DNA of 64,000 bases from a bacterium ADurb.Bin212 (GTDB taxonomy: Bacteria > Patescibacteriota > UBA1384 > XYA2-FULL-43-10): the NCBI GenBank assembly GCA_002070055.1, contig MWCM01000005.1:2015-66014 (forward strand). Direction: 5' to 3'. The first letter of the stretch is position 1. Every line of letters begins with the position of its first letter. Position numbers and translations under genes: made by a program. Shown here one piece after another: positions 5,380 to 54,141 of the stretch. The notes under the pieces were generated by a model. That model was given only the letters and a program-made list of their open reading frames with translations, searched no databases and had not been told where the DNA came from.

Positions 5380-5461
5380 TGGGCGTAGAGGGACTCGAAC
5401 CCCCATGTCTTGCGACACTAGTTCCTAAGACTAGCGTGTCTACCAATTCCACCATACGCCC
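5377..5461 (-). tRNA. tRNA-Leu (anticodon UAG), type II with long variable arm
   Basis: Manual cloverleaf: acceptor GGGCGTA/TACGCCC, D-stem GTG/CAC with loop GAATTGGTAGA, anticodon stem CTAGT/ACTAG with loop CTTAGGA. Variable arm TGTCGCAAGACAT, T-arm GGGGG-TTCGAGT-CCCTC, discriminator A, encoded CCA. Strongly resembles canonical bacterial tRNA-Leu. Confidence 0.85.
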
Positions 5462-9974: not shown

Positions 9975-11288
9975 ATGATCGAAACACTGCACATCGCGGC
10001 CGCCTTGGCGGCCATCCTGTCGTTTCACGTCGCATTCAGGTGGGAGAAGGCGGGCGGGCTGATTGTTGTGTACATGGCCTGCCTCTTCTTCCTAACCGGA
10101 GTCCCCGACCCCTTGCGGGCGGGGACGTTGGGCATGGCCATCGGGTTGGGCACTGTGCCCTTCCAGATGTGGTTTATGCTCAGATTCCTGGGAGGGAAGG
10201 CGCTTGGCCTGTGGCTCTACATGAGCTCACTGCCGGCGATCTTTCTCCTGCTGTCCTCGTACCTTAGGGGCAGCCACGAACTTATGGTGCTCGCTGTCCC
10301 CTTCGTTTGGAGCATCATCGAAGTGGGAAGGAGCGAGTGTGGCAGGTTGCGCTACAGCTGGCTCATACCGGCTCATGCGCTTTCCGCTAGGCCGTGGATC
10401 AAGCTCCTCGGAGCAGGTGTCTACGGTTTCAGCTTCCTCGTCATGGCAGCCCTTGCGCTCTGCGCGGTGCTGCCGGCCTACCTCTGGCCGGTCGTCGTTG
10501 GGGCAGCCCTTGGCGCCTTGATCGTTCGGCAGAGCCCCTTCTGGACGCATAAGCACCTTCAGGTGGCCGGCTTCCAGATTGAGGCAGGCGTGGACGGCGG
10601 CACGGGCCTGCGTTTTGCAGGATACGACGAAATCCTGCGCCAACTCCACCGCTGCCTCCACCGCCACCCCAACGCCGAACTGGTAGTGGCACCCGAGTAC
10701 GCGCTACCAGACCAACCCGAGGCAATGCTTCTGGCATGGTGCCGAAAGTTCGGCAAGTGGCTGCTTATCGGCGGCCGGGAACACCTTGACGACGATGGCG
10801 GGTTCAGAAACACCGCCTATCTCGTCTCCCCCCTCGGAGAGGTATTCCGGCAGGGCAAAATGGTGCCCATACCCACGGCACCGGACGGTCTGCCCGCCAC
10901 CGAGCAGAAGCCGCTTCGTAACTCCTTGGGCACTCTTGGCATCTGCATCTGCTACGACCTAAGCTTCGCCTCGGTCGTAGCACCGCTCGTTGAGAGTGGT
11001 GTGCAGGCGCTGGTGGTGCCATCAATGGACCTTGCGGAGTGGGGTCCGCACGAGCACCGGCTTCACGAGAAGTGGGCGAGGATTATGTCCTACGTCTACT
11101 CCTTGTCGGTGTTCCGTGTGGTCTCCTCCGGCCAGTGCCAACTGGTTGATTGCGGAGATGTCCTTGCGGTCAGCCAGGACGGCACCATCGGCGACAACTT
11201 GCCCATGCACTTGGGCGAAGTGCCTACCGACTGGAGGATCCTCCGCCACCTCCTTCCTCCGCTCGTGCGCGCGCCGAGTGAGGAGTAA
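9975..11288 (+). CDS. lnt: apolipoprotein N-acyltransferase (Lnt)-like: polytopic N-terminal domain plus C-terminal CN-hydrolase domain; high-GC
   Basis: About 6 TM helices, then a nitrilase-superfamily domain. Candidate catalytic residues are Glu in LVVAPEYALP, Lys in FRQGKMVPIP and Cys in LGICICYDLSF. Visibly GC-rich relative to the flanks. Confidence 0.7.
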   Translation: MIETLHIAAALAAILSFHVAFRWEKAGGLIVVYMACLFFLTGVPDPLRAGTLGMAIGLGTVPFQMWFMLRFLGGKALGLWLYMSSLPAIFLLLSSYLRGSHELMVLAVPFVWSIIEVGRSECGRLRYSWLIPAHALSARPWIKLLGAGVYGFSFLVMAALALCAVLPAYLWPVVVGAALGALIVRQSPFWTHKHLQVAGFQIEAGVDGGTGLRFAGYDEILRQLHRCLHRHPNAELVVAPEYALPDQPEAMLLAWCRKFGKWLLIGGREHLDDDGGFRNTAYLVSPLGEVFRQGKMVPIPTAPDGLPATEQKPLRNSLGTLGICICYDLSFASVVAPLVESGVQALVVPSMDLAEWGPHEHRLHEKWARIMSYVYSLSVFRVVSSGQCQLVDCGDVLAVSQDGTIGDNLPMHLGEVPTDWRILRHLLPPLVRAPSEE

Positions 11289-11312
11289 CAACTTCTGCGC
11301 ACAGAACACGGA

Positions 11313-11352
11313 AGCCCCGCTCTACCTCGTAGAGTGGGGCTTCTTGCTTTTC
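11313..11352 (+). terminator. intrinsic terminator after the Lnt-like gene
   Basis: GCCCCGCTCTAC-CTC-GTAGAGTGGGGC hairpin followed by TTCTTGCTTTTC. Confidence 0.5.
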
Positions 11353-11392
11353 TATCTTGATTTTTTCGGTGATTGTGTTAATATGCGGTTAC

Positions 11393-11640
11393 TTGCAAGA
11401 GGTTTGAGGGCGGCGCTTCGGCGGCATCTCCAGCGGTAGCCTTGGCATCACAAAGGACATCCGCACGAGCTAAGTTTGCTCGGGAGGCCCAAGTAAACCG
11501 CAGCCATTCCTTTTGCAAGGAGGTCAGCCCGCCTTTCGGGTGAACCGGGGTAGAGAGCGTTGTAGCAATGTTGCTGTTACACCCCGCCAGCACTCATTGC
11601 TGCTCTCTACCCACCTTTTTTAAGTCAAGAGCTAGCGGCT
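11393..11640 (+). ncRNA. candidate structured RNA or leader (GC-rich, promoter-like start, tandem terminators at the 3' end)
   Basis: Promoter-like TTGATT-N16-TAATAT (11359-11386). About 250 nt of GC-rich sequence with long inverted repeats. Ends with a GGGTAGAGAGC...GCTCTCTACCC hairpin plus TTTTTT, and a second hairpin AGAGC-TAGCG-GCTCT plus T8. Class not identified. Confidence 0.3.
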
Positions 11641-11711
11641 CTTTTTTTTGTTTTAAAAATAGATTCCATGTTATGATTTGAATAATAGATCAATTAAATA
11701 GTGAGGTATAA

Positions 11712-12083
11712 ATGCCAGGCGAAACAATCGGACCCGTATTAGAAGCAGAAACAAACAACCCAGAGAAAGAAGAGCAGCCAATAGGTGCTGGACCATATTT
11801 TTTAGCAGGAAAACCAAAAAATGAAAGCTATTTAGGAGATAATACCATAATTACTCTAGCTGTATGGCACGGCACACCGGTTTTAGCTCCCAGCAGCCAA
11901 CTGGATCGTGGCCTAGAGCTAGATGTAACAGTTGCCACAGACGAAAAAGAAGAACTAAGAACCGAAAACGGTGGTTATGATATCGGTGGTATATATAAGC
12001 TGGAAGACGGAGAACTTATCACCAAAAGAGCATACGAAAATAAATACGGCACAACTAATAGAACCGAAGAAATAGCCGCTTAA
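11712..12083 (+). CDS. hypothetical protein (123 aa)
   Basis: ORF with RBS GTGAGGT before the ATG. Followed by a terminator. No motif. Confidence 0.4.
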   Translation: MPGETIGPVLEAETNNPEKEEQPIGAGPYFLAGKPKNESYLGDNTIITLAVWHGTPVLAPSSQLDRGLELDVTVATDEKEELRTENGGYDIGGIYKLEDGELITKRAYENKYGTTNRTEEIAA

Positions 12084-25978: not shown

Positions 25979-26987
25979 AGACATATTTAAAAAATCCTCT
26001 TCACGAAGAAAAATCGATAGATCTGAAGGAGAAGAAAAAACTCCGGATATTATTTTGAGCACAAACAAGGCCATTGAGATTTTGTCGACACAAAAGCAAC
26101 ATCTAAATTCCAAGCAAGTTGAATTAAGTCTAGACAAAAAGCGTCTTAATAGAAAATTAGACCGCCAGATATTAAGAATCCACAGAACAAAAGAGCAAGT
26201 TGAAAAAAGGATAGAGTTTGTTCGAAACGGCGGCGCCAGGATTTCAATTCCATTCTTAAAGAATTCTGATCTATTTCTGCGCAGAAGACTTCTCTGGTAT
26301 AGGAATTGGCACAACAATTCAATCTCACCCAAACTTCACTTAACCGCCCTTGGGTCTTATCTAATAATCTCTGTCTTTTTAGCTATCATATTTATGCAGG
26401 GTGTGCCCAATAACACCTCCGCCCTTAATTCTGAACACCGTAAAACCTCTTTAGTATCTGCCATCTACACACCAGATAATCTGTCGCTTAAAAATAGCAA
26501 AGTGCAACTGCCTCAAGACGAGAAGCCGATATCTACTTTATATGAAGACAATTTAGCCGTTGACTTTTCCGATAAATCAAGCAAATTGGCCAGTGCTAAA
26601 ATTCGAACCATGGACAAGAACAAGCAAGAGCAATGGGTTGAATTTGTCTTGTTGCAACCGAAGGATTTACAACAACCCAGCTCTGAAAATATCAGCTCGA
26701 ACTCTTTAGTAAGCGCTTCAGCACATGCCGAACCGGACAATAGCCTGGTTGAGGCAAATATCGTTGATGTCACCAAAGAGATCAATAACAGTATAGTAAC
26801 CCTGAATGTTAATAATGCTGTTGCCGCAAAATATGAGGTCTCAAGCAACAATAGTCAAGCCACAGTTAAAGAGACTTTAATTATAGAAGACATTAGCGCA
26901 TTTAGTAAAAATCCCGACTATACGATCTCTTTTAGAGTAAAAACTCAAGGTCTAGCAATAATTCAAAAAGAAAACGGTGCCTATTAG
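25968..26987 (+). CDS. hypothetical coiled-coil/single-TM protein, translationally coupled on both sides
   Basis: Overlaps the TPR gene by 11 nt and the giant gene by 11 nt. Charged coiled-coil N-terminus and TM helix LHLTALGSYLIISVFLAIIFMQGV. Confidence 0.4.
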   Translation: MALKDIFKKSSSRRKIDRSEGEEKTPDIILSTNKAIEILSTQKQHLNSKQVELSLDKKRLNRKLDRQILRIHRTKEQVEKRIEFVRNGGARISIPFLKNSDLFLRRRLLWYRNWHNNSISPKLHLTALGSYLIISVFLAIIFMQGVPNNTSALNSEHRKTSLVSAIYTPDNLSLKNSKVQLPQDEKPISTLYEDNLAVDFSDKSSKLASAKIRTMDKNKQEQWVEFVLLQPKDLQQPSSENISSNSLVSASAHAEPDNSLVEANIVDVTKEINNSIVTLNVNNAVAAKYEVSSNNSQATVKETLIIEDISAFSKNPDYTISFRVKTQGLAIIQKENGAY

Positions 26988-29900
26988 CTTATCTGATTCT
27001 AATGGTTTAACGGTAATGAACATTGAGCCGCCAGTAATTGAAGACAACCGTGGTACCAAAGGTCAAATTAGCCTTGAAATAGTTGACGATGTCGCAACTT
27101 ACTTTATTGATAAAGACTACATCGAAAACGCTGAATATCCGATATTTCTTGACCCTACCGTAACGGTATCAACTTCAACTATCACAAATCCTAATTCATA
27201 TGCCAAAGACCGTACACTCTTAGAAACCAGTGACGGGACATTGGTGAATATATATTCTGACGGTGCCGCCATTAATTATCGCACCTCGTCAGACAAAGGA
27301 GCCAACTGGAGTTCCGCAACAAAAATAACAGATTCAGCAAATGCCGACGATAACGGCTTCTCCGCATGGATTGATGTGGATGATAATATCCATCTTACTT
27401 ACTCGGACAACAACACGAATCCTTACATATTTTACCGTCGCTTGTCTTACAGTTTTGCCACAACTGTCGTCTCAATCGGTGCAGAAAAAACCGTGGAATC
27501 ATCAGGGACCAGCCGTATGTATCCCTCAATTGTAGCCACAGAGTCATCAAACACTATTCACGTCGCTTACCGTTATTACGACGGAAGTGATTACACAATT
27601 AAAGTTAAGTCTAGCAGTGATTTTGGTGATAATTGGAGCGCCGCCTCTACTCTCTCTCCCGCTACCAATGCCAACGCCGCAACCTATCCCTGCGCAATTC
27701 TTTGGAACGACAAACCGGCAATTATTTATAATTATCAAAACGCCTCATTACGTTGGAATTATTACAACGGTAGCAGTTGGCAATCAGAAGGCTGGGACAA
27801 TGAATTGATAACAGCTGAAGTTGATGCTGATACCGGGCTAGAATTTACTGCAATAGAGTCGCCATTCAACAACTATCTACATCTTTCGTGGAGAGGAAGC
27901 GGCACTAACGGCATCAGGTATCTAAAAAACAACAATTCCGTAGCCGGTTGGGATGGAACCTCAACCGCCATAACTGCAGACCATAACGATAGATTTCCAA
28001 GTATTGGCGCCGGCACAAATGATTATATTAACCTTTATTACTCTGATTATGTTGGAGCTAATTCATATAATATCAAGTATATCTCTAAAAGTAGCGCAGG
28101 GTCTTTCGGGGCTGTTAACTCTGTGACCACGGATGACGCAAATAATTTAGTCTCTCATGCTGCCCAGAAAGCAACTTATTACAGGAACAATTCTTTGCTT
28201 TTTGATGGCACAGACGACCATGCCGACCTGCCAGATGGATTCTCCGATTTTACCGGAGGTTTAACATTGGAGTTGTGGGCATATCCTACCGCAGCGCAAA
28301 ATTACGCAAGATTTTTTAATTTTAGCAACGGCGCTCCAAATAACAACATTGTTTTTGGACGCACCGGCACAACGACGAATTTAGCATTTATTGTATGCAA
28401 CGGCACGAGCAGTTGCCCCACGGCAGTGACTGCCACTGGGGTACTTGAACTTAACAAGTGGCAGCATTTTGTCGTCACTCAAAGCGCAGCCGGAGCTGTG
28501 ACCATATATAAAAATGGAGTAAGCGTTGCCACCGGGACTCAGAATATCCCTACAAACATTACTCGCACCATAAATTATATCGGCCGAGGCGCTTGGGTAA
28601 CCGATTCATATTATAAAGGCAACATAGATGGGGTAAGAATTTACAATCGCAGCATTAGTTCAGGAGAGGTTACAGCACATTACCGTAGCGGAATCGGACC
28701 TAAAAAAATCCCCACAGATACAAATCAACTCGCGGCATATAATTTTGATGAGACCAGTGGCACCTCTGGCGCAGACGCTTCGGGAAATTCTATGACTGCC
28801 ACCCTTGTTTCTGGCCCCTCAAATCAGCACAATAGTGTGCCTTATAAAAATTCTAATAATTACGCAATCTACTCCCCCAACTCAAACGGCTACATTTCCA
28901 TTCCCGCCAATGCCTCAACCAATACCAACACAACCAATTTTACAATGGAAGCGTGGGTAAAGGCTAAATCTACCGGCGCTTGGCGTTGGATAATGGGCAA
29001 AAATAATAGTGGTAATTGGCTTGGCATTAACTCGGGCGGATATTTAAACTTTTCCACTGCCGGAGGAGCCAATAATATCTCCTCTACTGCTTATGTTACC
29101 GACGAAAAATGGCACCACGTGGCTGCAACCTTCGACACCGGCACTCTTAAGTTATATATGGACGGCAAAAACACCGATACTTGGACAGGGAAAAGTGTAT
29201 CTGCCCAAACCGGGGCAACTTATATCGGCTATAACGGATATGAATATTATTACGGTTGGATTAACGAAGCAAGGCTTTGGACAAAAACACTATCGGCCGC
29301 TGACATACTTAATCGATTTTCTGCCGGCTTGTTTGCAACTGGTGCACCAGAGGCTAATTTAGGCGGTGGCTGGTCTATGAACGATGCTTCCGGCACTACC
29401 GTAGCCGACTTTAGCGGTAATGGTAATACTGGATCGTTTGTTAACACCCTCTATTTCGATAACGTATTAAAAACCACTCTTTCGACTCCTTCCGTTACTT
29501 TTGTTGAGGGCACAGGTTCACCATACAATATTAAGTGGGGGCCTAAAGCAAAAGTATGGACTGGCATGGGAGCCAACACCAACTGGACAACCGCAGAGAA
29601 TTGGAGCGACGGTGTTGCACCAGTAGGCGGTGACAACCTGTTGTTTGACGGCCCAACCGGTGGCAGTTCGGTTGCCGATTCAGTACCGGACAACCTTGGT
29701 TCCATAGAAATTGTTAAGGAGAGCAGCATAACATTATATTTCAGCAAACATCCATCTACAAACGTTGACACTTTTAAAATTAACTTAACCGGTGATTGTA
29801 TTTTTAATGGGGGCATAGTTCAATCTGAAGGTGATACTACCGTCATGCACGCAGGAATTACAGATGGCCAAGGCAACGAACTATCCGCGTCCAATATTTT

Positions 29901-32900
29901 TGTCGGCCCCTCTGGCATCATTAATTTAGATGGTCTTGGCTTTCCTGCCAGGCAAGGTCCGGGACGCATATACCTGACAAACGACGAGAGAGGTTCCGGG
30001 CATGGCGGACAAGGTGGCGGGAGCCCCTATGGCGGCACAGCTTATGGCGACTTCTCGGACCCTGTTTCACTGGGCAGTGGAAACTACCGTGTAGCCGGAG
30101 GAGGCGCTTTAAAACTTAACGCCAGCCAGTCAATTATATTAGATGGTTCGCTAAGCGCCAACGGCTTAAGTAATTATGGCGGAAGCGCCGGAGGATCTTT
30201 TAATATAAGCGGAACCTATATTGCTGGAGTGGGTAGTGTTAAGGTTAATGGCGGAGCCGGAGACTATGGGACCGGCGGTGGCGGAAGAATTAAATTATCC
30301 TCAAACACTAATAATTTTATCGGCACATTACAGGCCAAAGCAGGAAATCAATCCGCCGGTATCAACGGAGGCGCAGGCACGATATTTAAAAAACTAGCTT
30401 CACAGACTTACGGCGATTTAATTATCGATAACGGCGACGCCACTCAGAACGGGCGCAACCAAACCTCAGCCTATTTAAAAGGCTCAAGTGGCGATACGGG
30501 CAGTTACCAATTTGATTCAATTACATTTAATAACTACGGCAAACTCGAGATTATCTCCGGACAAAGTTTAGCACTTAACAGTGGCACTATTACTGGTACC
30601 AAAACAGCGGGAGTAATAAATGCCGGAACAGTAAGCGTGCCGGACAACTGGTCTCTCAACTACTTCTATTCACATAAAAATGGCACATTATCCGGATGGA
30701 CTCAAACAAATTTAACAATAACCTCTGCCGGTAAATTAACTCATTATATCAATGATTCTACAGACACCTATGGCCTTAATCTAACACTAGATAGTCTAAC
30801 CGTAGATAGTGGAGGTGAGATTGACGTTAGTGAAGTAGGATATGCTTCGCAACAAGGCACAGGCAAAGGTAAGGTTATTACTGGTGGTTATGGCGATGGT
30901 GGTGGTTACGGAGGAGAGGGAGGACGAAACGACACCGATATGACTAGAAGTAACCCTTATGGAGATTATTCTAATCCAACTGAACTTGGTAGTGGCGGCG
31001 CTTACTCAGGTGGCGGCGGCAAAGCTTTATTAACCATAACTGGGACAGCCACAATTAATGGCAGTCTGCTCGCAAACGGACAATCAGCAAACTCCGGAGG
31101 GTCGGGTGGAAGTATTAATTTATCGGCTGCCACAATCACCGGCGGCGGCACAATCACGGCCAATGGTGGTTCGGGTGGCACAATTTACTCCGGTGGCGGC
31201 GGTGGTGGCAGGATACGTCTTGCCTCTACGGCCAACACTTTTAGCGGTACTCTAACCGCCCGAGGAGGCACAGGCTATAGTAGCAATTATTCAGGTGGGC
31301 CAGGAACTATCTATAAAAAACTTTCCAGCCAAAGCTATGGCGATCTAATTATTGATGATAACGGCAATACTCACCACAATAGATATTTTATGGGGGCATA
31401 CTTAAAAGATAAAGCTGACAGCGGTAGCTATCAATTTGATTCAATACAATTCTCTAATTATGGAAAACTTGAAGTTTTAGGAAGTCAGATAATTAATGCA
31501 ACTGCAACAACTATTACCGGCGACAAAAATTCCGGTTTTTCAAACGCTGGCACAATTAATCTACCCTCTACATGGAACCTCTCCTATTTATATATGCACA
31601 AAGGGGGCACAATAAGTGATCTTGCTAATAAATCGATTGTAGTGACATCAACCGGCTTCCTGACACATTATTTTAACAACTCCGAAGAGACATATTCAAT
31701 AAATTGGACATTAAATTCAGTTGAGGTGCAGACTAACGGCGAAATTAATACTACAAACAATGGTTATGCCGCCAATAATGGCCTCGGGCCCGGAGCATCA
31801 GCTGGCACGCCTTCTGGCTCTGGTGGTGGTGCATACGGCGGAAACGGTGCTGCTGGCACAGTTGGTGCAGGCGGAACTGCCTACGGCTCGGTAACAAACC
31901 CGACCAATCTTGGTTCAGGTGGCGGTGGCGGAGCTAATGCCGGTGGCGGTGCAATTATTCTAAATGTTAATACTCTGAATTTGTCCGGAACACTTGCCGC
32001 AAACGGAGCTGATAGTGCCGCCAATGATTACGCAGGAGGTGGTGCAGGGGGCAGCATAAATATCACTGCTAATACAATCAGTGGTTCTTCTGGCTCAATT
32101 ACTGCTAACGGCGGCTACAGTAAATGGAGAGGTGGCGGTGGCGGTGGCGGTAGAATTGCCATAAATTACACCACTGACTCATACACAGGCGGTCTATCGT
32201 CTCTAGCAATCTCCGCCAAAGGCGGCATGAACGGAGTGACTTGGGGTGAAGATGGTACACGCAAAGGTGCCGCCGGAACTATATATATCAAAAAAACCTC
32301 CGATGCTTACGGCAGTCTGAAGATTGATAATGCTGTAGCCACCACTACTGTAGCTAGGACCCCTTTGACTCTTCCATTGGCTTATAGCAATGTTACAATT
32401 TCTAATTACGGCAAAGCTACCATATCGACCAACGCTGATACGGCTCAGAACACTTTGGCCGTGAACGGAAATTTAACCGTGGGTGCAAACTCCGAGCTGA
32501 TACTCAACTCCGATAACGATGGCACTCCTGCCGCTGGGGCTTGGCCAATTATTACTGTGACTGGTGATGCTAATATTTCCGGTTCTGTTACCTCTAACGC
32601 TACCGGCTATATACATGATCTGGGCAGTGGCAAGGGCAACATAAGCGGTTCTTATGGTTCTGGTGCAGGGTATGGCGGCAGTGGTGGCAATTCCGCCAAC
32701 GGAGCAATTGGTGGGGTAACTTATGGCACAGAACGTGACAATAACTATATTGGAAGCGGAGGCGGTGGGGCAAATGGTGGGGCAGGTGGCGGCATGATAA
32801 AAATGTCGGTATCCGGATCTCTTGATCTAAGCAACACCGGAACTATTGCAAGCAACGGTGGAGCTGGGGGCACAGACGGTGGCGGTGGTTCTGGAGGTTC

Positions 32901-35900
32901 AATTCAGATCGTTTGCACTACTCTATCCGGCTCGGCTGGTAGCACCATCTCAAGCAATGGCGGAGCCGGAGGAGCAAATGGTGGCGGAGGCGGTGGTGGT
33001 AGAATAACAATTTATCCATCCAATGATAGTTATCTTGGCACTCTAACGGCAACCGGCGGTTCCGCCGGTTCTGGTGGAGCCACTGCTGGAACAAACGGCA
33101 CAGCAATTATTCAACACACACCTGGCTCCCTGACTATGAACTCACCTAACGACGCCGCTACTGATCAAATACAAAAAACAGTATTTCGCTTTAACTCGAC
33201 AGACATCGACAACGACTGGATACAATACAAATTACAGATTGCCGCAGATATAAACTTCAGCGATGGCGTTTCCACCTTTGACCAAACTCTCTCTCAAAAC
33301 CCAAGTAGTGGAGGTAGAAGCGCAATATTCTCCAATCAAGACAGAACCACGGGCAATGTCGCCGGAAGTGACGGATACTCTTCGGGCAGAGAAGCAATTC
33401 TCACACTGCAAACAAATCTGACTCAGGCAAGAACATACTATTGGAGATTCTACGCTTATGATCCAGAAGGAGTCGACTCTTTTGACGGCAGCCAGCACTG
33501 GTCACCAGCTTCAAGCATCAGATCGTTTACTGTTGCAAGCATCGACCATATTTCGTTCTCGACACCCCAACAAGAGAGCGTTGTTACTTTCTGTTCTGCA
33601 GTTATGACTGTAAATTTAAGAGACTCGAGTAATAACAATATCTACTTAACAGAGGACGACGGCCCCACAGCACTACAACTTAGCGCTGATTCAGCTTCAG
33701 GCTCATTTTATTCCGATTCAGATTGTGAGACGGCTATACCTAGCGATCAGGTTATAGTTGCAGTTTCTGGTAACTCTGCCAGTTTTTTCTACAAGGACAA
33801 CCAACCTTCGCCGGTAAACAATTATTTTACAATCACGGTTGCTGAAACACCATCTGAAGGATTAACAGATGCTACTCAACAGATAAGAATTAAGCCAGGC
33901 GATTTAGGGTCTTTTGAAATATCAGGGGCTCCGGTATCAATAGTTGCCGGTGCGGCTTTCTCTTCTCCAACAAACGACATTACCGTAACTGTAAAAGATA
34001 TTTTTGGGAACACAAAGAACGATTGGACCGGGCAAATCTGGTTCTATTCCTCCGATTCGCAAGCTGATTTAGTCTATGACGACTCAAATAAATATTCATT
34101 CACTTCCGGCGAAGGTCTGGATAACGGCACACACACTTTTGATGGCGGAAACTTCGTCTTAAAAACCAAAGGTAATCAATCTTTAGTAGTCCACAACTCA
34201 AGTGGTGGTGAATACGACGAAGTGGTAGCTATAACCGTTAACCCTGCGGCTATAGACCACTTCTCTCTCAGCGACTACCCACGCACAGCCAGCGGAAAAT
34301 TCGCCATGAGTTCTTTTTCTTGGGACACACCAGGATATTCAGACGCTCCATACGACCCGATTGTCACAGCATACGACCTTTACGGAAACATAAAAGATGA
34401 TTATGTTGGAGAAACATGGTTTGAACTCTACAAATCCACCGATGCGGCCGGTAATCCTTTGGATTCTAGCGCAAATTATGCCTTTGATTACGATTATACT
34501 AATCACTATACTTTTACCTCGGGTGACGGATTAGATAATGGCACTCACACTTTTGATGGCTCCGGCTTTACAGTAGTAACCGCAGCCAACGATCTACGCC
34601 TCAGAGTAAAAACTTCGGCGAATGGAGGTGTTTACACCGACTTTACGATAACAGTGAAGCCTCAATCGATTGACCACTTCCTTATTAGCTCAACTCCAAC
34701 CCTCTCCAGAAATGGAATAGATTGGGACAAAGAAGTAGACGAGGAGTTCATCGAAGACATCACCGTCACTGCATACGATACCTTTGGCAATGTAAAAACA
34801 GATTATTATTATAACGACGCAACAAAAGCCGGCATGATCTACTTCTATTCAAGCGACCCGCGCGCCGTACTTCCCTATTCCAAAACAGTCAGCACAGATT
34901 CCTCTGCCTGTTTAGCCTTCCCGCAAGCTGCCAACGGTTCTTATACTTTAGATACAACCAACACCCCCTTAAACTACTTTAAATTCTTAACAGGGGGGCC
35001 ACAAACGATCTCAGTTTCAGAATGTATTGATCCTACCTCTGCATACGCCACTGGAACTGATAATAAATATGACCCTAGGCTCGAAGGAGTAAATCCGCTC
35101 AAAGTTATGGCCGCAACGGGCCAAATCCCCGCCACAGGTGATGATCCAAATAAAATATTTGTAGCTAATCATGTGCCCGGCTCAACCCACACAGCAGTCG
35201 ACCATTCTGACGATTCGAACGATCTTATCGAAGCTGGACCAGGCCATGAGCAGGCAACTCTTTCTTGGACTAATCCCTTTGATATCCCAAGCGACCCCGC
35301 TCTTGACGCTCAGGCATATATTTATCGTTGCACAACAAACTGTGAAAATATCGCAAACTTTAGTAGGATTATTACAGATCCGGCCACAATTAGCGTAACC
35401 GCTGGAGAAGTTTCTGAATACACCGATACAGGGCTAACAAATGGAACCGAATATTTTTACAAGCTCTCTTATGCTTATAAACGACAGGATGATAGTTATA
35501 TCGAGAGCAACAAATCAATCACAGTCAGCACAACTCCGGCAGACATTGCACCAAGAAATATCTCTGCCTCACAACTTGATATAAGTGACAGCACAAACCC
35601 GGGCAAGGTAAGAGTGGACTATCAACTACGTTGGGATTCGACTGTTTCCTTGGCATACTATAACCCTGCCACCAACTCATGGCATAATGCATCACCTAGC
35701 GCCATGAGCGGAGATGTGGGCCCCGGCATCACTGGAGATGAAGCACTAATATCTCACACCGCTTATTTGGACCCTAACATTGATTTCGACGGTCAATATT
35801 TAACCGATACCTTTAAGGTTAGGGTTAAGGTAACAGTCAACTCAGCCAGCACTTATGCCGATTCAGCGACTCTTGATCTTGATTCAAAAAATCCGGCTGG

Positions 35901-37689
35901 CGCCACCCTGGTTGTGGATGCGACAGACGGCAACAGCGCCGATCTTACCTTTTCTGCCTCGGATAATAATGAGCTATCCATGAAAGTCGCTGGAGATCCC
36001 GACTTTACTGGAGTAGACTGGCAAGCGTTTACCGAAACAATCGAAGATTTTGGAATCAACGGTATGAACTCTGTCTATGTAATTTATAGAGATTCTTTTA
36101 ATAACACCACAACAGTAGAACAAGAAATTTTTAGCGCGCCACAAAACGTAAGCATTAAGGACGGTTCAAGCGCGGCGTCACAGACATATCGGCTACTTAT
36201 TACTTGGGATGATCTAATACCAATGCCGGAACATTACAATGTTTTTCGTTCAATAGATGGCGAAAATTACTCTCACTACGACACCACTGTTAAAAACGCC
36301 GCAATTGATATTAATCTTGATCCGGATACGCTTTACTCATATAAAATTCAAGCAGAAGATGGGGCCGGCAATAAATCAGCTCTATCGGATGCCGTTTCGT
36401 CACGTCCGGGAACCGCCCCCGACGTAACCGCAGACCCGGCAGTTGAGTTGTTTGGCTGGAAACAAGATGTGGGAGTAAGAGCAAGGATTACTTGGGATAC
36501 CGACCAGAACTCCGATTCTTTTGTCGCTTTTGCCAAAGAGCCGATTAAAAGCGGTTCCGTATTAGATACCGAGTCAGGCAACGAAGATGCAGTCTCTGTA
36601 GTTGGATCCCCCGATATGGTAACATCGCACGAGATAAATCTCTCCAATCTGGAGCCATCGACTAAATATTATTTTAAGGTATTATCTAAAAACGAAATTC
36701 AGATCACCGGCTACTCAGATGTGTTTGAGTTTACTACCCCGGAAAGAGTTTTGCTGTTAATTTCTGGCATGAAAATTACCGACATTACCAATAATTCAGC
36801 ATTTATCTCTTGGACCACATCAAAAATATCAACCAGCTTGGTTGAATATGGGCAAACCAGCCAGTATGGTGAAACAATTGAGGACCTGAGCCAGAACACC
36901 GAGCATAAATTCAAGCTGGAAAATCTGATATCAGGAGACTACCATCTTCGGGTCAGCGCCAGAGATGTAGATGGCAATTTAACTATCTCTGACGAATATA
37001 TCTTCAATATTCCACCAACCCCTACTATTACAGATATAGCCATCACTGACATTAGCGACAACACTGCAAAAGTTTCTTGGAGCACAAATGTGTCATGTAA
37101 TTCAAATGTCGATATTGAGAGCGATAGTGGCAACGGCTCACAAGGCAATGCTAGTTATACTACAAGCCATTCTGTAAACCTTGTGGGGTTAAGCGCCAAA
37201 ACCAACTATACCTTGAAGATAAGATCAGTTGACACATACGGTAATACTGCTATCTCGGAGAGCAGACAGATTACTACCACCGCAGACTTGTTTGCCCCAA
37301 AAATTATTAACCCTAAATCAGAGATAACTTCAACCGGATCAGGTGAAAACATTAAATATCAGTTGATTGTATCGTGGGAAACAGATGAGCCGTCTACCAG
37401 CAAAGTTGAGTTCGGCCAGGGTGTTGGTAATGCCTACGAATCATCCAGCAAAGAGGAGTTGTCCTTAAATATGACTCATACAATAATTGTTACTGATCTA
37501 AAACCAAACTCTGTTTATCACTTTAGAATAAAAAGTGGCGATAAAGCCAATAATGTCGCATACTCTGATGATTACACTATTACCACCCCACCCAAAGAAA
37601 AAGACATTATTAGCATAATAATAAACGCTATTGTCGGGCCTATGAACGATATCTACCAGGGAGTAATTAATAAGTTATTCAAAAGGTAA
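26977..37689 (+). CDS. giant (3570 aa) multidomain surface protein: BNR/sialidase-like N-terminus, LamG-like lectin domains, three Gly-rich beta-helix-like super-repeats, four C-terminal FN3-like domains
   Basis: A single uninterrupted 10.7-kb ORF. Asp-box/BNR repeats ([18 protein letters not shown]). LamG-like blocks ([13 protein letters not shown]...LELWAYP...[17 protein letters not shown]...[10 protein letters not shown]...LKLYMDGK). Periodic [11 protein letters not shown]...TANGGSGG...[10 protein letters not shown] units. C-terminal FN3-like modules ([17 protein letters not shown]..., [16 protein letters not shown]..., [19 protein letters not shown]...). Confidence 0.8.
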
Positions 37690-41902: not shown

Positions 41903-42709
41903 CTAAACGAACAAGAGGGCGACCAACACCAAAGCCATCACTACATCTACTCTGCTCTTGATCCGGCTGGCCTCTTTGGCCGACATACTACCACGCACAG
42001 CTAGCTGAACCACAGTCGGCACCCAAAGCAGGGCCACTAACCTCACCCAACCCAAGGCTTGCAGAAGAACCAACCATGTGGCAAGGCAAGCGACCGCCAG
42101 ACTCAGTGCCGCCACCCTTTTGGCCCCCGTTTCACCCACAGCCTGGATCCATGTCCATTTGTGGCCAATGTCGTGGGGGTGGTCTTCGAAGTCCTTTAGG
42201 ATCTCGCGGCCGTGGATCACAGATGCTACCGCCACAAACAGCAACAGCACTCCAGAATCTTCATTACCTTGACCCAGAGTTACCAAGAGCACCGTTAGAC
42301 TGGAAGCCCCGGCAACCAGTAGGTTCGGCAGTACCGGAACAGTTAACAGCTCAGAGTAGAGAAGACCGGTGACGATGCAAAGGAATATCAGAGCCCCTGA
42401 TTGCCAGCCCAGATCCAACCAGACTGCCATCGCCAACAAGCCGGAGAGTAGCCACAGAGTTGTGGCATACAGCCGGTATTGCCGGGGGTTTTGGGCAGCA
42501 TGGCGCTTGCCCATCCTTGCATCGTGCTGCCGATCACGCAGGTCATTCTGGACCATGGTGGCACACAGCACTACAAACACCGCCACAGCCGGCAAGACAG
42601 AGGCTGAGAGATCGCCGCCGGCATATTTTACGCTAACAATCACGAGCAGCACGGCAAAGAGGTTAATCCTCCACCGTGTCGCCTCGATATAAGGCCGGAT
42701 ACTCTTCAC
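41903..42709 (-). CDS. UbiA-family membrane prenyltransferase (high-GC island)
   Basis: Polytopic. First Asp-rich motif NDLRDRQHDAR (NDxxDxxxD) and second DFEDHPHD. GTG start preceded by GAGGTGA. Visibly GC-rich. Confidence 0.65.
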   Translation of the reverse strand: MKSIRPYIEATRWRINLFAVLLVIVSVKYAGGDLSASVLPAVAVFVVLCATMVQNDLRDRQHDARMGKRHAAQNPRQYRLYATTLWLLSGLLAMAVWLDLGWQSGALIFLCIVTGLLYSELLTVPVLPNLLVAGASSLTVLLVTLGQGNEDSGVLLLFVAVASVIHGREILKDFEDHPHDIGHKWTWIQAVGETGAKRVAALSLAVACLATWLVLLQALGWVRLVALLWVPTVVQLAVRGSMSAKEASRIKSRVDVVMALVLVALLFV

Positions 42710-46025: not shown

Positions 46026-46319
46026 CTTTGGGATATCATCCCCTTTCTTCGGCCGCTTGCACCACGGCCAGTGATACTGCCCGCAATACGGGCAGGGTTG
46101 CTTGCGCCGGTTGGGGTAACCTACCGGACGCGGGGGCACTACGGGTCCAACGGGCCCGATCGGCATAGTATCCAACCCCTTTCATTTTCAACGGTTCTGA
46201 ATTGGCAACTTTTTATAACATTTTTTGACGATATTCGCAACATTTTTTGCTTTACAAATTTTGCAAAAAGTTATAGTATTACTTATCGTCGCAACATCGA
46301 CTCCAAGCGAGGTAAAGCC

Positions 46320-47036
46320 ATGCCCGAATTGACTATCGCCACATTCCTGACACTGCCGTTCACGATGGGCACAAGAGTGGCTATCTCCCAAGGGTGGCTA
46401 TACTCCATGGACGAGGTAGTCATTCACCCTGGCATTACCCACCACAACGGGGTGGACTTCGCCTGCCCATGGGGTACACGCGTACTGGTGCCGGCCGACG
46501 GTGTGGCAGTAGCCAGCTACCACACCTACTACATGGGTGATTTCCATGGTCGTCTGATCGGCTATGGGCTAGGGTTGTTTGTGCAGATCTGGCACCCCGA
46601 GGCCCAACTCTTCACCTCTTACGCACACCTATCCAAGGCGTCTAAGGAGATTCCCTACATCTCACCGGTCCGCCAGGGCGACAGTTGGCAACCGGCGGCA
46701 GCCATCTATGTGCCGCTGGAGGTGTTTCTGGCGCAAGGTGTTGAGGTGAAACGGGGTGACTATCTTGGCGAAGTTGGCCGCACAGGCCTACTGCTCCACG
46801 ACGAGACACCCAGCAACCCCCCAGCAACCAAGGCGACCGACCCCACTTGGGATCCTGCAGGTGATCACTTGCACTGGGAGTGCTACAGACGCACACTCGA
46901 CGGCCTCCGCAAGGACCCTGAGGCGCGCTGCGACCCCTTCGGTGTCTATGGCCTCCGCGAGGCCTACAACATCAACAAAGCTAGCGGTCTGTTGCTGGCC
47001 GGCCCCAAGGGCAGACCCCTATGGGCCAACGAGTGA
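46320..47036 (+). CDS. M23-family (LytM-like) metallopeptidase (high-GC island)
   Basis: HPGITHHNGVDFACPWGTRVLVPADGVAVASY (HxxxD ... GT.V.A...G.V) and GDHLHWE (HxH). RBS GAGGT before the ATG at 46320. The longer upstream ORF extension is non-coding GC-rich sequence. Confidence 0.7.
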   Translation: MPELTIATFLTLPFTMGTRVAISQGWLYSMDEVVIHPGITHHNGVDFACPWGTRVLVPADGVAVASYHTYYMGDFHGRLIGYGLGLFVQIWHPEAQLFTSYAHLSKASKEIPYISPVRQGDSWQPAAAIYVPLEVFLAQGVEVKRGDYLGEVGRTGLLLHDETPSNPPATKATDPTWDPAGDHLHWECYRRTLDGLRKDPEARCDPFGVYGLREAYNINKASGLLLAGPKGRPLWANE

Positions 47037-48781: not shown

Positions 48782-48836
48782 TTAGTGTAGCACCGAGCTT
48801 TAAAGCTCACCATCACATCACTCTACCCTGAAGGGG

Positions 48837-50693
48837 GTGGCTGAGTTGTTTGAGTTTCTTGCAGTTGCGCTGTCGTACATATGGGGGTCGCTCCCCTTTG
48901 GGTACACGGTGGGGAAGCTCGCCGTAGGGAAGGGCTTCGACATCAGAAACCATGGCTCCGAAAGCATCGGTTTCACCAATGTCTGGCGAGTACTGGGCAT
49001 GAAGGTAGCAATACCAGTGCTCATCCTCGACCTGCTCAAGGGATACCTGCCTGTGGCGATCGCCATGCACACGCTTGGTGTTACAGCCGCCTGGCTCTGT
49101 CTGATCGCGGTAATGATCGGGCATGCCAAGTCGCTCTACTTCCGACTCACCGAAGGTCATTTCAGCGGCGGTAAGTCGGCGGCTTCTGCGATGGGTGGCA
49201 TCGTTGCTCTTCAACCAGTGCTCGCCGGATGGGTGTTCCTGTTCTTCCTGGCAGTACTGCTTGTGAGCAGAACAATGTCGGTATCTTCGATGCTTGCGAG
49301 TTTCTGTGCAGTCTGGCTATCCTACCACTACGAACTGGGACACGGATGGCACACTCTGTTCTGGGTTGTTGCAGTGCTGATTATGTACACGCACCGCCGC
49401 AACCTAGGGCGCTTGGCTCATGGCACCGAGAACAAGATGTTCGAGTGGTCGGACATGCGGTGGCCATGGCAGAAAAAGCCAACGACTAAAGAGCAACCCG
49501 AGATCCTGGCAGGGTTCGTGATTCACGCCATGGACTGGAGAGATCTCCTGCAATCCATCTTCTCATGGTGGATAGGCTTTCTCGGGATGTGGGAACGCAC
49601 GAGACCCATCGCAACGTGGATATTGGCTCACGTACCGGTCATCGAGAACGCCGAGATCAGAAACATCCGACTCAAAGATGGCCGAAGGGTTAGAGTCCTG
49701 GTGTTGGCGATTCCTTGGGTGTCCAGCATGATCAAGCAGGTCCGGTATGCCAACGAGATTGACGAAAGAGAGGAAAAGATCCCGTCGGGATCGGAAGGAG
49801 CCGAAGCCAGAGATGAGGTGAAGAGAGCCAAACAAGCTCCGGAGTATAGGAGGTCGAAGTGGTTCCGTGATAGGCTCTGGCAAAGGCTTCGAAGCACAGC
49901 GGTGCAGACCAGACGTAGGGGTTGTTCGGTGTTAGGTCTTGGCGCTCTACTTTCGACCGAGTTCAACGGAGGTGCAGACCTACAGAAGTGGTGCAACGCG
50001 AGAGGCCTTGACCTGACCGTAGACAACGGAGCGGCCTACACAGCCGTTTCCACGGTACAGGCGGTGATTAAAGAGACACCCATGCCCCTCGACCAAGCTA
50101 AGGTCAAGGTAGTAGGTGCCAGCGGCTTCATCGGTCGCATTACCGCCAAGTACATGGAGAAACTAGCCGCTCAAGTGACCGTAATAGGCAGGGACGAGGC
50201 CAAGTTAACCGGGTTCAGTCAATCCACGGCAATCTCAACCGCGCTGGAAGACGCTTACGACGGCGACGTTGTAGTGCTTCTTACCAGCGCGCCCGGACAG
50301 GTGGTGAACCTCGAGAACTGCACCAAGTTCAAGCCTGGCGCTACCTTCATGGACGGCGCTAGGCCTGTTGACTTCGACGAGCAAATACTCAAAGAACACC
50401 CCGAACTCAACTTCAAGCTGGTGCGCTGTGGGGTCATCAAGTTTCCACAAGAAGAAGGCAGAGACGTTCTGTGTGGTGTGGATTTCCACTTCGATGGCTA
50501 CTACCCAGCTTGCGTCGCCCAGTGTGTAATGGTGGCGGCCGGAGGAGAAGAGGGAAGATCGAACGCCACCAACGGAGCGTCAATCAGGCCAGCCAAGTAT
50601 GAGTACTTCGCAAATAGTGCCGAGGCATGTGGCTTGGAGGTCATAACCTCGCGAAGATCGGAGGGAGATGTATTCGAGGGCAATTACAACTAG
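48837..50693 (+). CDS. plsY: glycerol-3-phosphate acyltransferase PlsY fused to a ~400-aa C-terminal extension with Rossmann-like NAD(P)-binding motif (high-GC island)
   Basis: N-terminal ~200 aa: LSYIWGSLPFGYTVGKLAVGKGFDIRNHGSESIGFTNVWRVLG, 5 TM helices, typical PlsY. The same frame continues without a stop for 618 aa and includes VKVVGASGFIGRITAKYM...VTVIGRD. GTG start. Visibly GC-rich. Confidence 0.6.
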   Translation: MAELFEFLAVALSYIWGSLPFGYTVGKLAVGKGFDIRNHGSESIGFTNVWRVLGMKVAIPVLILDLLKGYLPVAIAMHTLGVTAAWLCLIAVMIGHAKSLYFRLTEGHFSGGKSAASAMGGIVALQPVLAGWVFLFFLAVLLVSRTMSVSSMLASFCAVWLSYHYELGHGWHTLFWVVAVLIMYTHRRNLGRLAHGTENKMFEWSDMRWPWQKKPTTKEQPEILAGFVIHAMDWRDLLQSIFSWWIGFLGMWERTRPIATWILAHVPVIENAEIRNIRLKDGRRVRVLVLAIPWVSSMIKQVRYANEIDEREEKIPSGSEGAEARDEVKRAKQAPEYRRSKWFRDRLWQRLRSTAVQTRRRGCSVLGLGALLSTEFNGGADLQKWCNARGLDLTVDNGAAYTAVSTVQAVIKETPMPLDQAKVKVVGASGFIGRITAKYMEKLAAQVTVIGRDEAKLTGFSQSTAISTALEDAYDGDVVVLLTSAPGQVVNLENCTKFKPGATFMDGARPVDFDEQILKEHPELNFKLVRCGVIKFPQEEGRDVLCGVDFHFDGYYPACVAQCVMVAAGGEEGRSNATNGASIRPAKYEYFANSAEACGLEVITSRRSEGDVFEGNYN

Positions 50694-51875: not shown

Positions 51876-51904
51876 TTGACTTAAATTGTATTTTGTGCTA
51901 TAAT
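51876..51904 (+). promoter_or_regulatory. near-consensus sigma70 promoter TTGACT-N17-TATAAT upstream of the muramidase-amidase gene
   Basis: TTGACT 51876-51881, a 17-nt spacer, TATAAT 51899-51904. AAGGAGG RBS at 51985-51991, 8 nt before the ATG at 52000. Confidence 0.5.
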
Positions 51905-51999
51905 TGCTTAATTCTCTAAAGCAGAGATATATTTTTTGTTGCATAAAAATACTCCCTGCTTCAGCAGGACAAGCATCACAATCGAAGGAGGCGAGGCGC

Positions 52000-54009
52000 A
52001 TGAAAGCGCTCTCCTACGCCGTATTTGTTGTTCGGTTGTTGTGGTACATGGTGTGGGGAGGGGCTTACGCCATATCCTCCTTCATCATTGTGCCATTCTT
52101 CATCGCGCTGGCACGGCTACTAGTTGCCGTGCTAAAGCAGTGCTGGGGCAACCTGGCCTGCTTCTACAAGAGGTGGGTCAAGAGGAGTGGCCTGGGCCGT
52201 GTGCTTCTTTGGCACGGTGCCGCCTTCGTCGTAATCATGGTTGTCGTCGGCTCATGGGGAGACGCACCGCGCACGCCCCAAGCCGGAAGCAACCAGGCAA
52301 AGGAGCAGGTGGCACCCGCTACCACTCCCGAGCCCATGGACAAAAAGCCCGAGGAGAAGCCTGCGCCTGCAGAGGTAAAGGATACTTCTCCGAAGGGGGC
52401 GCTAGGCAAGGGCGCATGGATCATCGAGCTGGACGAGGCCGAACTTGGCCAAGTCAAACAGATCAAAGATCCGGAGGCTCGCCAGAGTGCGCAGGTAAAG
52501 GCGGTTGTGGCTAAGGCCAAGAAAAACGGCCTGGGGCATATCATCGTCAAGACTGCCCACTTCGGTAAGCCGTATGGCAGCTGCCCGCCCGAGATGGCGC
52601 GTGAACTTGGCGAAGCCTGCCGCAAGGCTGGCATCCGCTGCTTCGGCTACGGCCGAATTCTAGCGGACGATGCTGATGCCGAAGCGGAGATGGCCAAGCG
52701 AGCCATGCGCCCTGCCAGAGATGGCGGGCTCGGGCTCGATGGCTACGTCTTTGACGCCGAAGGAGAGGTTAAGGGCAAAGATAAGAATCTGCGCCTAATC
52801 CTCGCTGATGTCAAAAGCTGGCTTAAGGCTGCGGCGCCTAATAAGCGCCTTGGCTACTCCAGCTTCGGCATCCCCTCCTACCACAGAGGACTCGCTTGGG
52901 ACACACTCAACGAGTTCTGTCACTACGCCATGCCTCAGTTGTATTGGCGCAGTTGGCAGAGTACTCAGAAGTGGTCCTTGGATGAGTCCCTTGGCAAGTC
53001 GCTCGCCTCTTGGCGCGACTGCCCTCTGCCGGTGGTGCCCACCGTGCAGAGCTACTCAGGAAAGCTTGGCGGCGTAGCCCGTGTCGAACCAGCCAAGATG
53101 AAGAAGTTCCTGGCCGGCCTCGACACAAGCTCCGGCTTCAACTCCTTCCGCTGGGACTATACGGGCCCAGAGCAGTGGCAGGTAATCCGCGACTTTAAGT
53201 GCGGGCAACCTAGTTACAAGCTCAAAGTTCCGGCGGAAGGCAAGCAGACTAGTGCCGCCTCGACCACCATGCCCAAGATGCCGCTTGAGCCAACTGGCAA
53301 AGGCGACCTCACCGGCATGGTTGTGGTCATCGACCCCGGCCACGGTGGCACCGACCCCGGCATGGGTTGGAAGGTGGAATGGAAGAAGAGCGGCAAGGCC
53401 CACAAACTCAAAGCGTGGGAAGCCGCCGTCACCTACCCCACCTCCTGGCAACTGGCCGCCACCCTACGATCCCGAGGTGCTTACGTCTACCTCACCGCCT
53501 GGGACCCGATCATGGCCCAGGTGCCGACGGGCGCTCGGGATCTACCGTTGCCGAGGAAAGCAACCTTCACGGACGACTGCAAGAAAGTCCGCGGAGGCAT
53601 GTTTTCGCAGCGCTTTGCCACAGTTTCGACTGCGGTTAAGCGCTTCGACGCCTCCGGAAAGAAACTGGGCTGGCGCCATGTTGCCTTCGTCAGCATCCAT
53701 GTGGACTCGCTCGGTGGAAATGTGAGCGGTGCCCACGCTGTTTGCTGGCCGGGAGATGTTGACCTTGGCGAACCGATCGCAGCTGAACTTGCAAAGATCG
53801 GCGTTGCCACACCCGGCAGACCACTCTGGGAGAAGACGAAGAGGATGGGCATCATTGCCCCAAGTAACGTTCCCCTTCGTCTCCGACTGGTGGTCGAGAT
53901 GGGAGTCCCGGCCAACGATGGCGGTGACTCATGGCGACTGCGATCACAAAAGCATCGACAGAAAATCATCGATGCCATCGCCAACGGCCTCGCCGCCGTT
54001 AACGACTAG
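52000..54009 (+). CDS. membrane-anchored bifunctional peptidoglycan hydrolase: GH25-like muramidase domain plus C-terminal N-acetylmuramoyl-L-alanine amidase (Amidase_3) (high-GC island)
   Basis: N-terminal TM/signal anchor, then a Pro/Ala/Lys linker. GH25-like blocks LGHIIVKTAHFGKPYG, GIRCFGYG, LDGYVFDAEGE and MPQLYWRSWQ, compared with the GH25 pattern FVIIKATEG...G.YHF...LWLD.E...PLWIA.Y. Amidase_3 signature MVVVIDPGHGGTDPGM. Confidence 0.6.
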   Translation: MKALSYAVFVVRLLWYMVWGGAYAISSFIIVPFFIALARLLVAVLKQCWGNLACFYKRWVKRSGLGRVLLWHGAAFVVIMVVVGSWGDAPRTPQAGSNQAKEQVAPATTPEPMDKKPEEKPAPAEVKDTSPKGALGKGAWIIELDEAELGQVKQIKDPEARQSAQVKAVVAKAKKNGLGHIIVKTAHFGKPYGSCPPEMARELGEACRKAGIRCFGYGRILADDADAEAEMAKRAMRPARDGGLGLDGYVFDAEGEVKGKDKNLRLILADVKSWLKAAAPNKRLGYSSFGIPSYHRGLAWDTLNEFCHYAMPQLYWRSWQSTQKWSLDESLGKSLASWRDCPLPVVPTVQSYSGKLGGVARVEPAKMKKFLAGLDTSSGFNSFRWDYTGPEQWQVIRDFKCGQPSYKLKVPAEGKQTSAASTTMPKMPLEPTGKGDLTGMVVVIDPGHGGTDPGMGWKVEWKKSGKAHKLKAWEAAVTYPTSWQLAATLRSRGAYVYLTAWDPIMAQVPTGARDLPLPRKATFTDDCKKVRGGMFSQRFATVSTAVKRFDASGKKLGWRHVAFVSIHVDSLGGNVSGAHAVCWPGDVDLGEPIAAELAKIGVATPGRPLWEKTKRMGIIAPSNVPLRLRLVVEMGVPANDGGDSWRLRSQKHRQKIIDAIANGLAAVND

Positions 54010-54112: not shown

Positions 54113-54141
54113 TTGACAAACACACTCTCTTCTGTTAGTAT
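54113..54141 (+). promoter_or_regulatory. sigma70-like promoter (TTGACA-N17-TAGTAT) for the rpsF-ssb-rpsR operon
   Basis: Exact -35 TTGACA. The -10 TAGTAT matches 4 of 6 positions. Preceded by the hairpin AGAGCCGCCC-TCGCAAG-GGGCGGCTCT, which terminates the upstream gene. Confidence 0.4.

Follow-up and report, generated by a model that had tools for sequence, protein, structure and literature searches.

A putative free-standing structured RNA gene beside a high-GC lnt-like gene in a Saccharibacteria-like bacterium

The window analysed here is a stretch of 64,000 nucleotides from the genome of bacterium ADurb.Bin212 (assembly GCA_002070055.1, contig MWCM01000005.1), which has a background of about 40% GC. 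Within it, an lnt-like open reading frame (ORF) with a CN_hydrolase domain (9975-11288) is followed by an intrinsic terminator on the plus strand (11310-11344; a 16-pair hairpin with a T-rich tail), by a GC-rich stretch, here called the element, and by ORF123 (11712-12083, plus strand), which potentially encodes a small acidic orphan protein. The lnt terminator is the upstream boundary of the unit, and ORF123 is its downstream neighbour, not a part of the predicted RNA. The GC content of the element was 0.53-0.59 vs about 0.40 in its flanks, in agreement with an earlier note, made from the sequence alone, that had described a GC-rich stretch 3' of the lnt-like gene. A check of the sequence showed that all the other features listed in that note, including a promoter, long inverted repeats and terminator hairpins, are also present, each about where it had been placed. 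In an AT-rich genome, a structured RNA is expected to be GC-rich in this way.

The lnt-like gene is one of five isolated high-GC genes in the window, all related to the cell envelope, with GC3 values of 0.64-0.77 vs about 0.39 for the genome. The other four encode, in order, a UbiA prenyltransferase (41903-42709, minus strand), an M23 peptidase (46071-47036), a PlsY fusion (48837-50693) and an amidase_3 protein (51904-54009). The window also holds a single ORF of 3570 amino acids at 26977-37689. An independent Logan assembly (L003) is identical to the window across the lnt 3' end, the element, ORF123 and mnmA, so the jump in GC content is not an assembly chimera. Exact matches of the lnt-like protein and of ORF123 were also found on contig JAKJEL010000001.1 of GCA_022705445.1 ('bacterium ADurb.Bin212'). 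The nearest MnmA relatives come from metagenome-assembled genomes of uncultured Candidatus Saccharibacteria and other Patescibacteria. Two copies of the element were found, one in the window and one on a metagenome contig (L091, from JGI 3300044603) whose MnmA is about 70% identical at the amino acid level. The L091 contig runs from MnmA via a 125-aa ORF and the element homologue into the 3' end of lnt, where the hairpin of the lnt terminator is kept with a different arm sequence.

A putative promoter of the extended -10 type lies on the plus strand at 11357-11384. It consists of a -35 hexamer TTGATT (11357-11362), a 16-nt spacer that ends in TGn (11376-11378) and a -10 hexamer TAATAT (11379-11384). 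Because only 8 of the 12 hexamer positions agree with the consensus, the site is missing from the list of the consensus scan. In L091, the -35 hexamer is identical (6/6), the TG is kept, the -10 hexamer is TAGTAT (5/6) and the spacing is again 16 nt, while only 10 of the 16 spacer positions are identical (62%) and a 6-nt indel lies upstream of the -35 hexamer. The TTGATT-N16-TAATAT sequence proposed earlier is therefore present, with its hexamers and spacing largely kept in the relative, and the element has a predicted promoter of its own that is conserved in L091. From promoter geometry only, transcription would start at A11391, 7 nt after the -10 hexamer; the first helix of the predicted RNA begins at 11392, adjoining this position.

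At the other end of the element, the plus-strand terminator T2 (11627-11649) is composed of a hairpin (11627-11643) and a T-run. It was listed by the terminator scan, and the RNA probably ends here. Its stem and a run of seven U are kept in L091, and a further related locus (L093) bears at this position a hairpin almost identical to T2 (AGAGC-4nt-GGCTCT followed by T7). The 3' end would thus be formed by an intrinsic terminator that is conserved in both L091 and L093. Of the tandem terminators claimed in the earlier note, this second one stands. The first, a long hairpin (hairpin 6) followed by T6 (11616-11621), fared less well: since L091 has only four U at this place, the hairpin is more likely a structural domain than a conserved terminator.

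Between these two ends, the predicted plus-strand RNA opens with Domain 1 (11392-11519), a long irregular stem ending in a junction, on which separate minimum free energy (MFE) folds of the window and of L091 agree. It is closed by the 11-bp helix P1 (11392-11402/11509-11519) and continues through a 2-bp step (11405-6/11505-6), P2 (11410-13/11498-11501) and P2b (11415-18/11491-94). The junction bears P3 (11433-36/11461-64) and P4 (11466-70/11478-82). The tip of P3 (11437-11460) is variable, being 33% identical to L091 with a 3-nt length difference, and L091 has a different small hairpin there (GGCA-CAG-UGCC). Between P1 and the next hairpin lies a Shine-Dalgarno-like linker, AAGGAGG (11517-11523), which is identical in L091; no conserved AUG, GUG or UUG is found 5-10 nt downstream of it in the window or in L091.

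Hairpin 5 (11522-11546; GGU-CA-GCCCG / CGGGU-GA-ACC) contains the T-box-like GGGUGAACC and is predicted to fold in the same way in L091, where two pairs survive one-sided changes (one G-U becomes G-C, one G-C becomes G-U) and a terminal pair no longer forms. The sequence GGGTGAACCGGGG occupies 11538-11550. In hairpin 6 (11548-11621), an outer stem of 11 bp encloses inner stems and an apical loop rich in C; ACC and U6 follow. As the earlier note had it, the stretch contains long inverted repeats before the T6 run: the arms GGGTAGAGAGC (11548-11558) and GCTCTCTACCC (11602-11612) are 100% complementary. An ACCCC in the apical loop is conserved in L091. In the outer stem, the pair U11551-A11609 is replaced by C-G in L091, while the inner stems carry changes without compensation. 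An additional outer helix (11387-9/11613-5) was considered and dropped, as it lies upstream of the predicted start, despite a compensatory change in it. That change concerns the pair 11388/11614, a fourth apparent compensatory pair besides those given below; such coincidences occur at this sample size, and it is probably one of them.

The stability of the fold alone does not discriminate the element. On the plus strand, the whole element had a z-score of -4.24 and the 5' domain by itself one of -3.2, but a sliding control gave values of -3 to -6 within the lnt coding region as well (9990-11300), that is, as good or better. This coding region is itself unusually structured for coding sequence. 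From the window sequence alone, the element stands only weakly above chance, and it is the comparison with the diverged homologue that lifts it above this level.

Across 10863-11717, the window and L091 are 78% identical. Within the element, identity is highest in Domain 1 without its variable tip (90/103, 87%), followed by hairpin 5 (81%), the long hairpin (75%) and T2 (73%). As neutral proxies for the island, we used the four-fold sites of lnt (41/66, 62%) and the spacers 11289-11344 (35/56, 62%) and 11345-11386 (27/48, 56%). Domain 1 exceeds these proxies, pooled at about 61%, with a Fisher p of 1.3e-6. As judged from these two aligned sequences, the comparison shows the element to be under purifying selection. 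The lnt island is also less diverged than the core genes, whose four-fold sites are 41-44% identical (MnmA, FolD and NifU; 62% vs about 42%, p=0.005), and therefore part of the conservation reflects a younger shared history. The low divergence of the high-GC lnt could be due to selection, biased conversion or more recent exchange.

The same comparison bears on coding. Five indels (3, 1, 1, 1 and 1 nt) separate the two copies within the element and the reading frames are not common to both; moreover, the GC content of the element is flat across codon phases (vs 0.64/0.45/0.77 for lnt). For these reasons the element is not coding.

The substitutions seen in L091 also preserve the predicted fold. 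When the window and L091 sequences were folded separately, 58 of 83 pairs were common to both, and P1, the 2-bp step, P2, P2b, P3, P4, hairpin 5, the outer stem of hairpin 6 and T2 were recovered in each. In a control with 61 random substitutions in the window sequence, a mean of 6.8 pairs was shared (maximum 34) and none of 400 replicates reached 58; when random bases were put at the positions that differ in L091, the mean was 29.7 and 2 of 400 reached this number. For Domain 1 and hairpin 5 alone, 36 of 50 pairs were common, a value reached in 1 and 14 of 1000 replicates of the two controls. Changed columns made up 18% of paired and 33% of unpaired positions. Three compensatory double changes were found, at C11422-G11487, at U11551-A11609 and at G11402-C11509, the innermost pair of P1, which becomes A-U and appears after manual realignment. 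There are also several switches between G-C and G-U within predicted helices. Among the changed pairs of the window MFE structure, 8 keep pairing in L091 and 13 do not, 5 of the latter being in the variable tip. Covariation is thin because only two sequences are available, and the conservation of structure likewise refers to these two sequences. As to the strand, 58 pairs are shared on the plus strand vs 44 on the minus strand, and the plus strand is also the one that agrees with the G-U pairs, the promoter and the U-runs.

Downstream of T2, a second promoter-like site precedes ORF123 (11648-11677, plus strand), with TTGTTT at 11648-53, an 18-nt spacer, TG at 11669-70 and TATGAT at 11672-77; transcription from it would be predicted to begin around 11684. 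The block TGTTATGATTTGAA is identical in L091 with its spacing kept, and L093 has TGATATGAT at the same place. The product of ORF123 (123 aa) matched only itself among 5.8 billion proteins and has no Pfam domain. Small ORFs occupy the same slot in L091 (3158-3535, minus strand; 125 aa) and L093 (7284-7640, minus strand; 118 aa). The proteins of the window and of L091 are both acidic (pI 4.4-4.6), and no similarity between them was detectable besides the first and last few codons. Among the small ORFs, the leader, the Shine-Dalgarno sequence, the first codons, the last ~6 codons (..EE.AA stop) and the terminator are kept, with unalignable interiors. This pattern suggests either cassette-like replacement or extreme divergence of the interiors.

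Known RNA families were looked for with Rfam 15. As the earlier note had suggested, cmscan was run on the window and on the element, and no family matched the latter. At the gathering score, the only match in the window was a tRNA at 5380-5461, distant from the element; at E<=10, searches of 2.6 kb and of the element alone returned nothing overlapping 11345-11660. The families compared included riboswitches, 6S, SRP, RNase P, tmRNA, the Lnt motif, raiA and HEARO. The scan of L091 gave only a sub-threshold match to CRISPR-DR36 (18 bits vs a threshold of 38), those of six related loci gave nothing relevant, and ARAGORN found no tRNA or tmRNA in the element. Readings of the element as a K-turn, SRP domain IV, RNase P, 6S or a retron were considered by eye and rejected, their defining motifs or partner genes being missing.

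Relatives of the element were searched for in several collections. In plasmid and phage collections, blastn gave none or chance matches of 27-39 nt. Five pattern scans of viral contigs, including scans with the blocks conserved between the window and L091, gave no match, and a hybrid-pattern scan of metagenome contigs gave one chance match within an unrelated ORF. An MnmA scan of genome contigs returned 80 loci, with the element in none of them. Four syntenic loci reached via lnt homologues (L004-L007) showed no similarity to the element by blastn, tblastx or nhmmer, and the contigs reached via MnmA homologues (L008, L089, L090 and L092-L096) end just after MnmA or hold unrelated GC-rich units; in four close relatives, the contigs end 0-460 nt past MnmA. 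With the covariance model R1, no match was obtained outside the window and L091. Spurious ORF calls on homologues were sought by comparing the translated plus frame of the element with 1.84 billion representative proteins, and only a chance match to a repeat protein was obtained. Nothing relevant was found in the literature on small RNAs of Saccharibacteria. Judged from these searches, the element belongs to no described RNA family.

The slot between RecG and MnmA is variable among the related loci. In relatives whose MnmA is 50-70% identical, the lnt-like gene is still high in GC at this locus (L004 6001-7254; L007 497-1861; L091 3963-4385; L093 8666-10057), and L004-L007 keep RecG, a high-GC lnt (43-50% identical) and MnmA with a different spacer. 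The slot of L004 and L007 holds a high-GC ORF for a secreted protein without blast or tblastx similarity to the element. L093 (8470-8230 and 8165-7700, minus strand) and L094 (8440-7830 and 7745-7450, minus strand) bear other GC-rich units there, each with a near-consensus promoter and an intrinsic terminator; these units contain no called genes, are unrelated in sequence to the element or to each other and have no Rfam match. Since the distant relatives keep lnt without the element, the RNA is not an obligatory cargo of the island, and the idea that it is carried on a high-GC island is doubtful. An island with the element adjoining lnt does occur in L091 but not in the more distant relatives. 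In place of the small ORF and the element, two loci (L008 6197-6587 and L089 8237-8698) have identical tails after MnmA, made of two repeat-like units of ~65 nt and a GC-rich terminator-like hairpin. In at least six related populations, the assembly breaks in or beside the locus, four at contig ends (L008, L089, L090 and L092) and two inside lnt (L003 and L091), which suggests strain variability or a drop in coverage at the GC shift.

The element shares traits with several known systems. Like free-standing small RNA genes, it has a predicted sigma-70-type promoter of its own, an intrinsic terminator, no coding capacity and several stable hairpins. Small RNAs with C-rich loops are known, such as RsaE/RoxS of Firmicutes and the 6C RNA of Actinobacteria; the conserved C-run (ACCCC) in the apical loop resembles theirs, and the element is, like such RNAs, GC-rich relative to its AT-rich genome. 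Unlike RsaE/RoxS and 6C, however, it is much longer and matches neither their sequences nor their Rfam models. It further differs from simple seed-pairing small RNAs in having a multi-helix domain of ~130 nt that is conserved in sequence. The Lnt RNA motif of Chlorobi, reportedly described by Weinberg et al. in 2010, is said to lie in the 5' UTR of lnt genes. It resembles the element in being a structured RNA candidate beside an apolipoprotein N-acyltransferase-like gene, but the element lies 3' of the lnt terminator on its own promoter and gave no Rfam score for this motif.

Two classes of cis-acting RNA deserve comparison. With T-boxes, the element has in common a length of ~250 nt, several stems, a terminal terminator and the stretch GGGUGAACCGGGG, which resembles the T-box sequence. 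This resemblance is superficial, as the earlier note had already held: no T-box model matches at E<=10, and UGGN is absent, the window having GGGUGAACC (UGAA) and L091 GGGCGAACC (CGAA), so that even the first base varies. In addition, Domain 1 is a branched Y rather than a Stem I with a specifier loop, and what lies downstream is neither an aminoacyl-tRNA synthetase gene nor an amino-acid gene. A riboswitch would share with the element a multi-helix domain closed by P1 at the predicted start, a highly conserved junction, and hairpins with a U-run thereafter. Unlike riboswitches, the element belongs to no known class, its P1 is unusually long (11 bp), and it precedes an unconserved orphan gene with its own promoter.

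Taken together, the promoter elements, the fold and T2, all kept in a relative whose neutral sites are only ~60% identical, indicate that the free-standing structured unit proposed earlier was a sound reading. The element is probably a free-standing, lineage-restricted gene on the plus strand, whose product would be a structured non-coding RNA of ~230-260 nt. It must be weighed against the possibility of a cis-acting leader of ORF123, a riboswitch or a protein-dependent attenuator in which Domain 1 would act as a sensor and the long hairpin with T2 as an expression platform with signal-dependent read-through. The unit does lie directly 5' of ORF123 on the same strand, and its layout is riboswitch-like, with P1 at the predicted start and the putative sensor better conserved (87%) than the downstream hairpins (73-81%). 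The 3' arm of hairpin 6 (GCUCU, 11602-11606) could also pair with the 5' arm of T2 (AGAGC, 11628-11632), and the outer pair G11602-C11632 of this alternative helix becomes A-U in L091. However, the long hairpin is much stronger than these 5 bp, Rfam gave no match to a riboswitch, T-box or leader family at E<=10, and a conserved TGn-TATGAT promoter of ORF123 itself lies between T2 and the Shine-Dalgarno sequence of this ORF. Moreover, in L093 the module of T2, promoter and ORF stands behind a different, non-alignable GC-rich unit. The protein is an orphan without conservation between the two element-bearing genomes; with a promoter of its own, it makes a sensor RNA a poor fit, and an independent RNA gene next to a separate small gene fits better. 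A riboswitch or leader for the 11712 ORF, which the earlier note had offered, is thus disfavoured, and we regard it as unlikely.

The element could also act at the level of DNA, for example as a flank for recombinational exchange of the ORF cassette, or be a processed 3' extension of the lnt mRNA. An exchange of cassettes would agree with the replaced or hyper-diverged ORF interiors between kept 5' leader, first codons, last ~6 codons and terminator, and with the assembly breaks at the locus in several relatives. The preserved RNA pairing, including G-U pairs that exist on the plus strand only, is not expected of a DNA site, and between lnt and the element stands a strong conserved terminator, so that explanations of this group seem improbable. 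Still more remote is the view that the stretch is non-functional GC-rich DNA, either a decayed second high-GC gene or a donor flank that came with the lnt-like gene, with real terminators embedded in it. The element does adjoin a single-gene high-GC island in which its fold z-score is ordinary, the content of the slot varies between lineages, and L004 and L007 carry a high-GC secreted-protein ORF there. These ORFs have no tblastx or blast similarity to the element, though, and neither the conservation of Domain 1 far beyond the four-fold sites and spacers of the island (at the p given above), nor the preservation of structure far above random, nor the conserved promoter elements would be expected of such DNA; a decayed gene in particular was ruled out by the flat codon-phase GC, the frame-breaking indels and the conservation above neutral. 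We consider this view very improbable.

For the free-standing RNA gene that we favour, transcription would begin near A11391 from the extended -10 promoter (TTGATT, 16 nt, TGn-TAATAT) and would end at the T2 hairpin and U-run (11627-11649), and some transcripts may stop earlier, at the U6 after the long hairpin. The predicted RNA would begin with a Y-shaped 5' domain, which an 11-bp helix closes; a small hairpin, a long one with a C-rich apical loop and finally the terminator would follow, making four parts in all. We infer that it is expressed with about these ends and functions as an independent RNA, not as an ORF123 leader, presumably in trans, by binding a protein or ligand or by base pairing. 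As sequence conservation, and not just conserved pairing, extends over about 100 nt of Domain 1, this domain points to a defined tertiary fold that would bind a protein or a small ligand, rather than to a simple antisense seed. The C-rich loop, which is conserved, or the AAGGAGG linker may play a role in base pairing. On a more speculative level, Domain 1 might be a new complex-fold RNA, an aptamer or a scaffold of a small RNP, of a Saccharibacteria-like lineage of the Candidate Phyla Radiation (CPR), tied to the adjoining envelope module (the high-GC lnt-like lipoprotein acyltransferase and the hypervariable acidic protein) and representing one case of a RecG-MnmA slot in which the strongly promoted GC-rich non-coding RNAs differ from lineage to lineage; this combined proposal is tentative, and we would rate it as rather unlikely.

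Bacteria of the CPR have tiny genomes and, to our knowledge, almost no regulatory RNAs have been described in them. An RNA of ~250 nt under selection for both sequence and fold would mean that these bacteria invest in lineage-specific structured RNAs. Lying beside an envelope gene that looks horizontally acquired and a fast-changing small protein, it is a concrete candidate to look for in metatranscriptomes or in cultivable Saccharibacteria. For the present its importance is modest, because its known range is only two metagenomic lineages.

Possible targets of the RNA were screened with RNAduplex against 43 start regions. The best one was that of the PlsY-like gene (-38.5 kcal/mol), through a CTCTACCC box, and this gene may be taken as a weak lead for a target. 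Of the four copies of the 8-mer CTCTACCC in the window, where about one is expected, two are arms of the element itself. The copy at 48821-48828 precedes the Shine-Dalgarno sequence of the PlsY-like gene by 8 nt and complements the 5' arm of hairpin 6.

Elsewhere in the window, 3' of the high-GC amidase gene, the region 54113-54400 bears a putative promoter close to the consensus (TTGACA, 17 nt, TAGTAT), and after it a GC-rich sequence that folds strongly, with a z-score of -5.5. It has no Rfam match and is a candidate for a second small RNA or leader of the same design.
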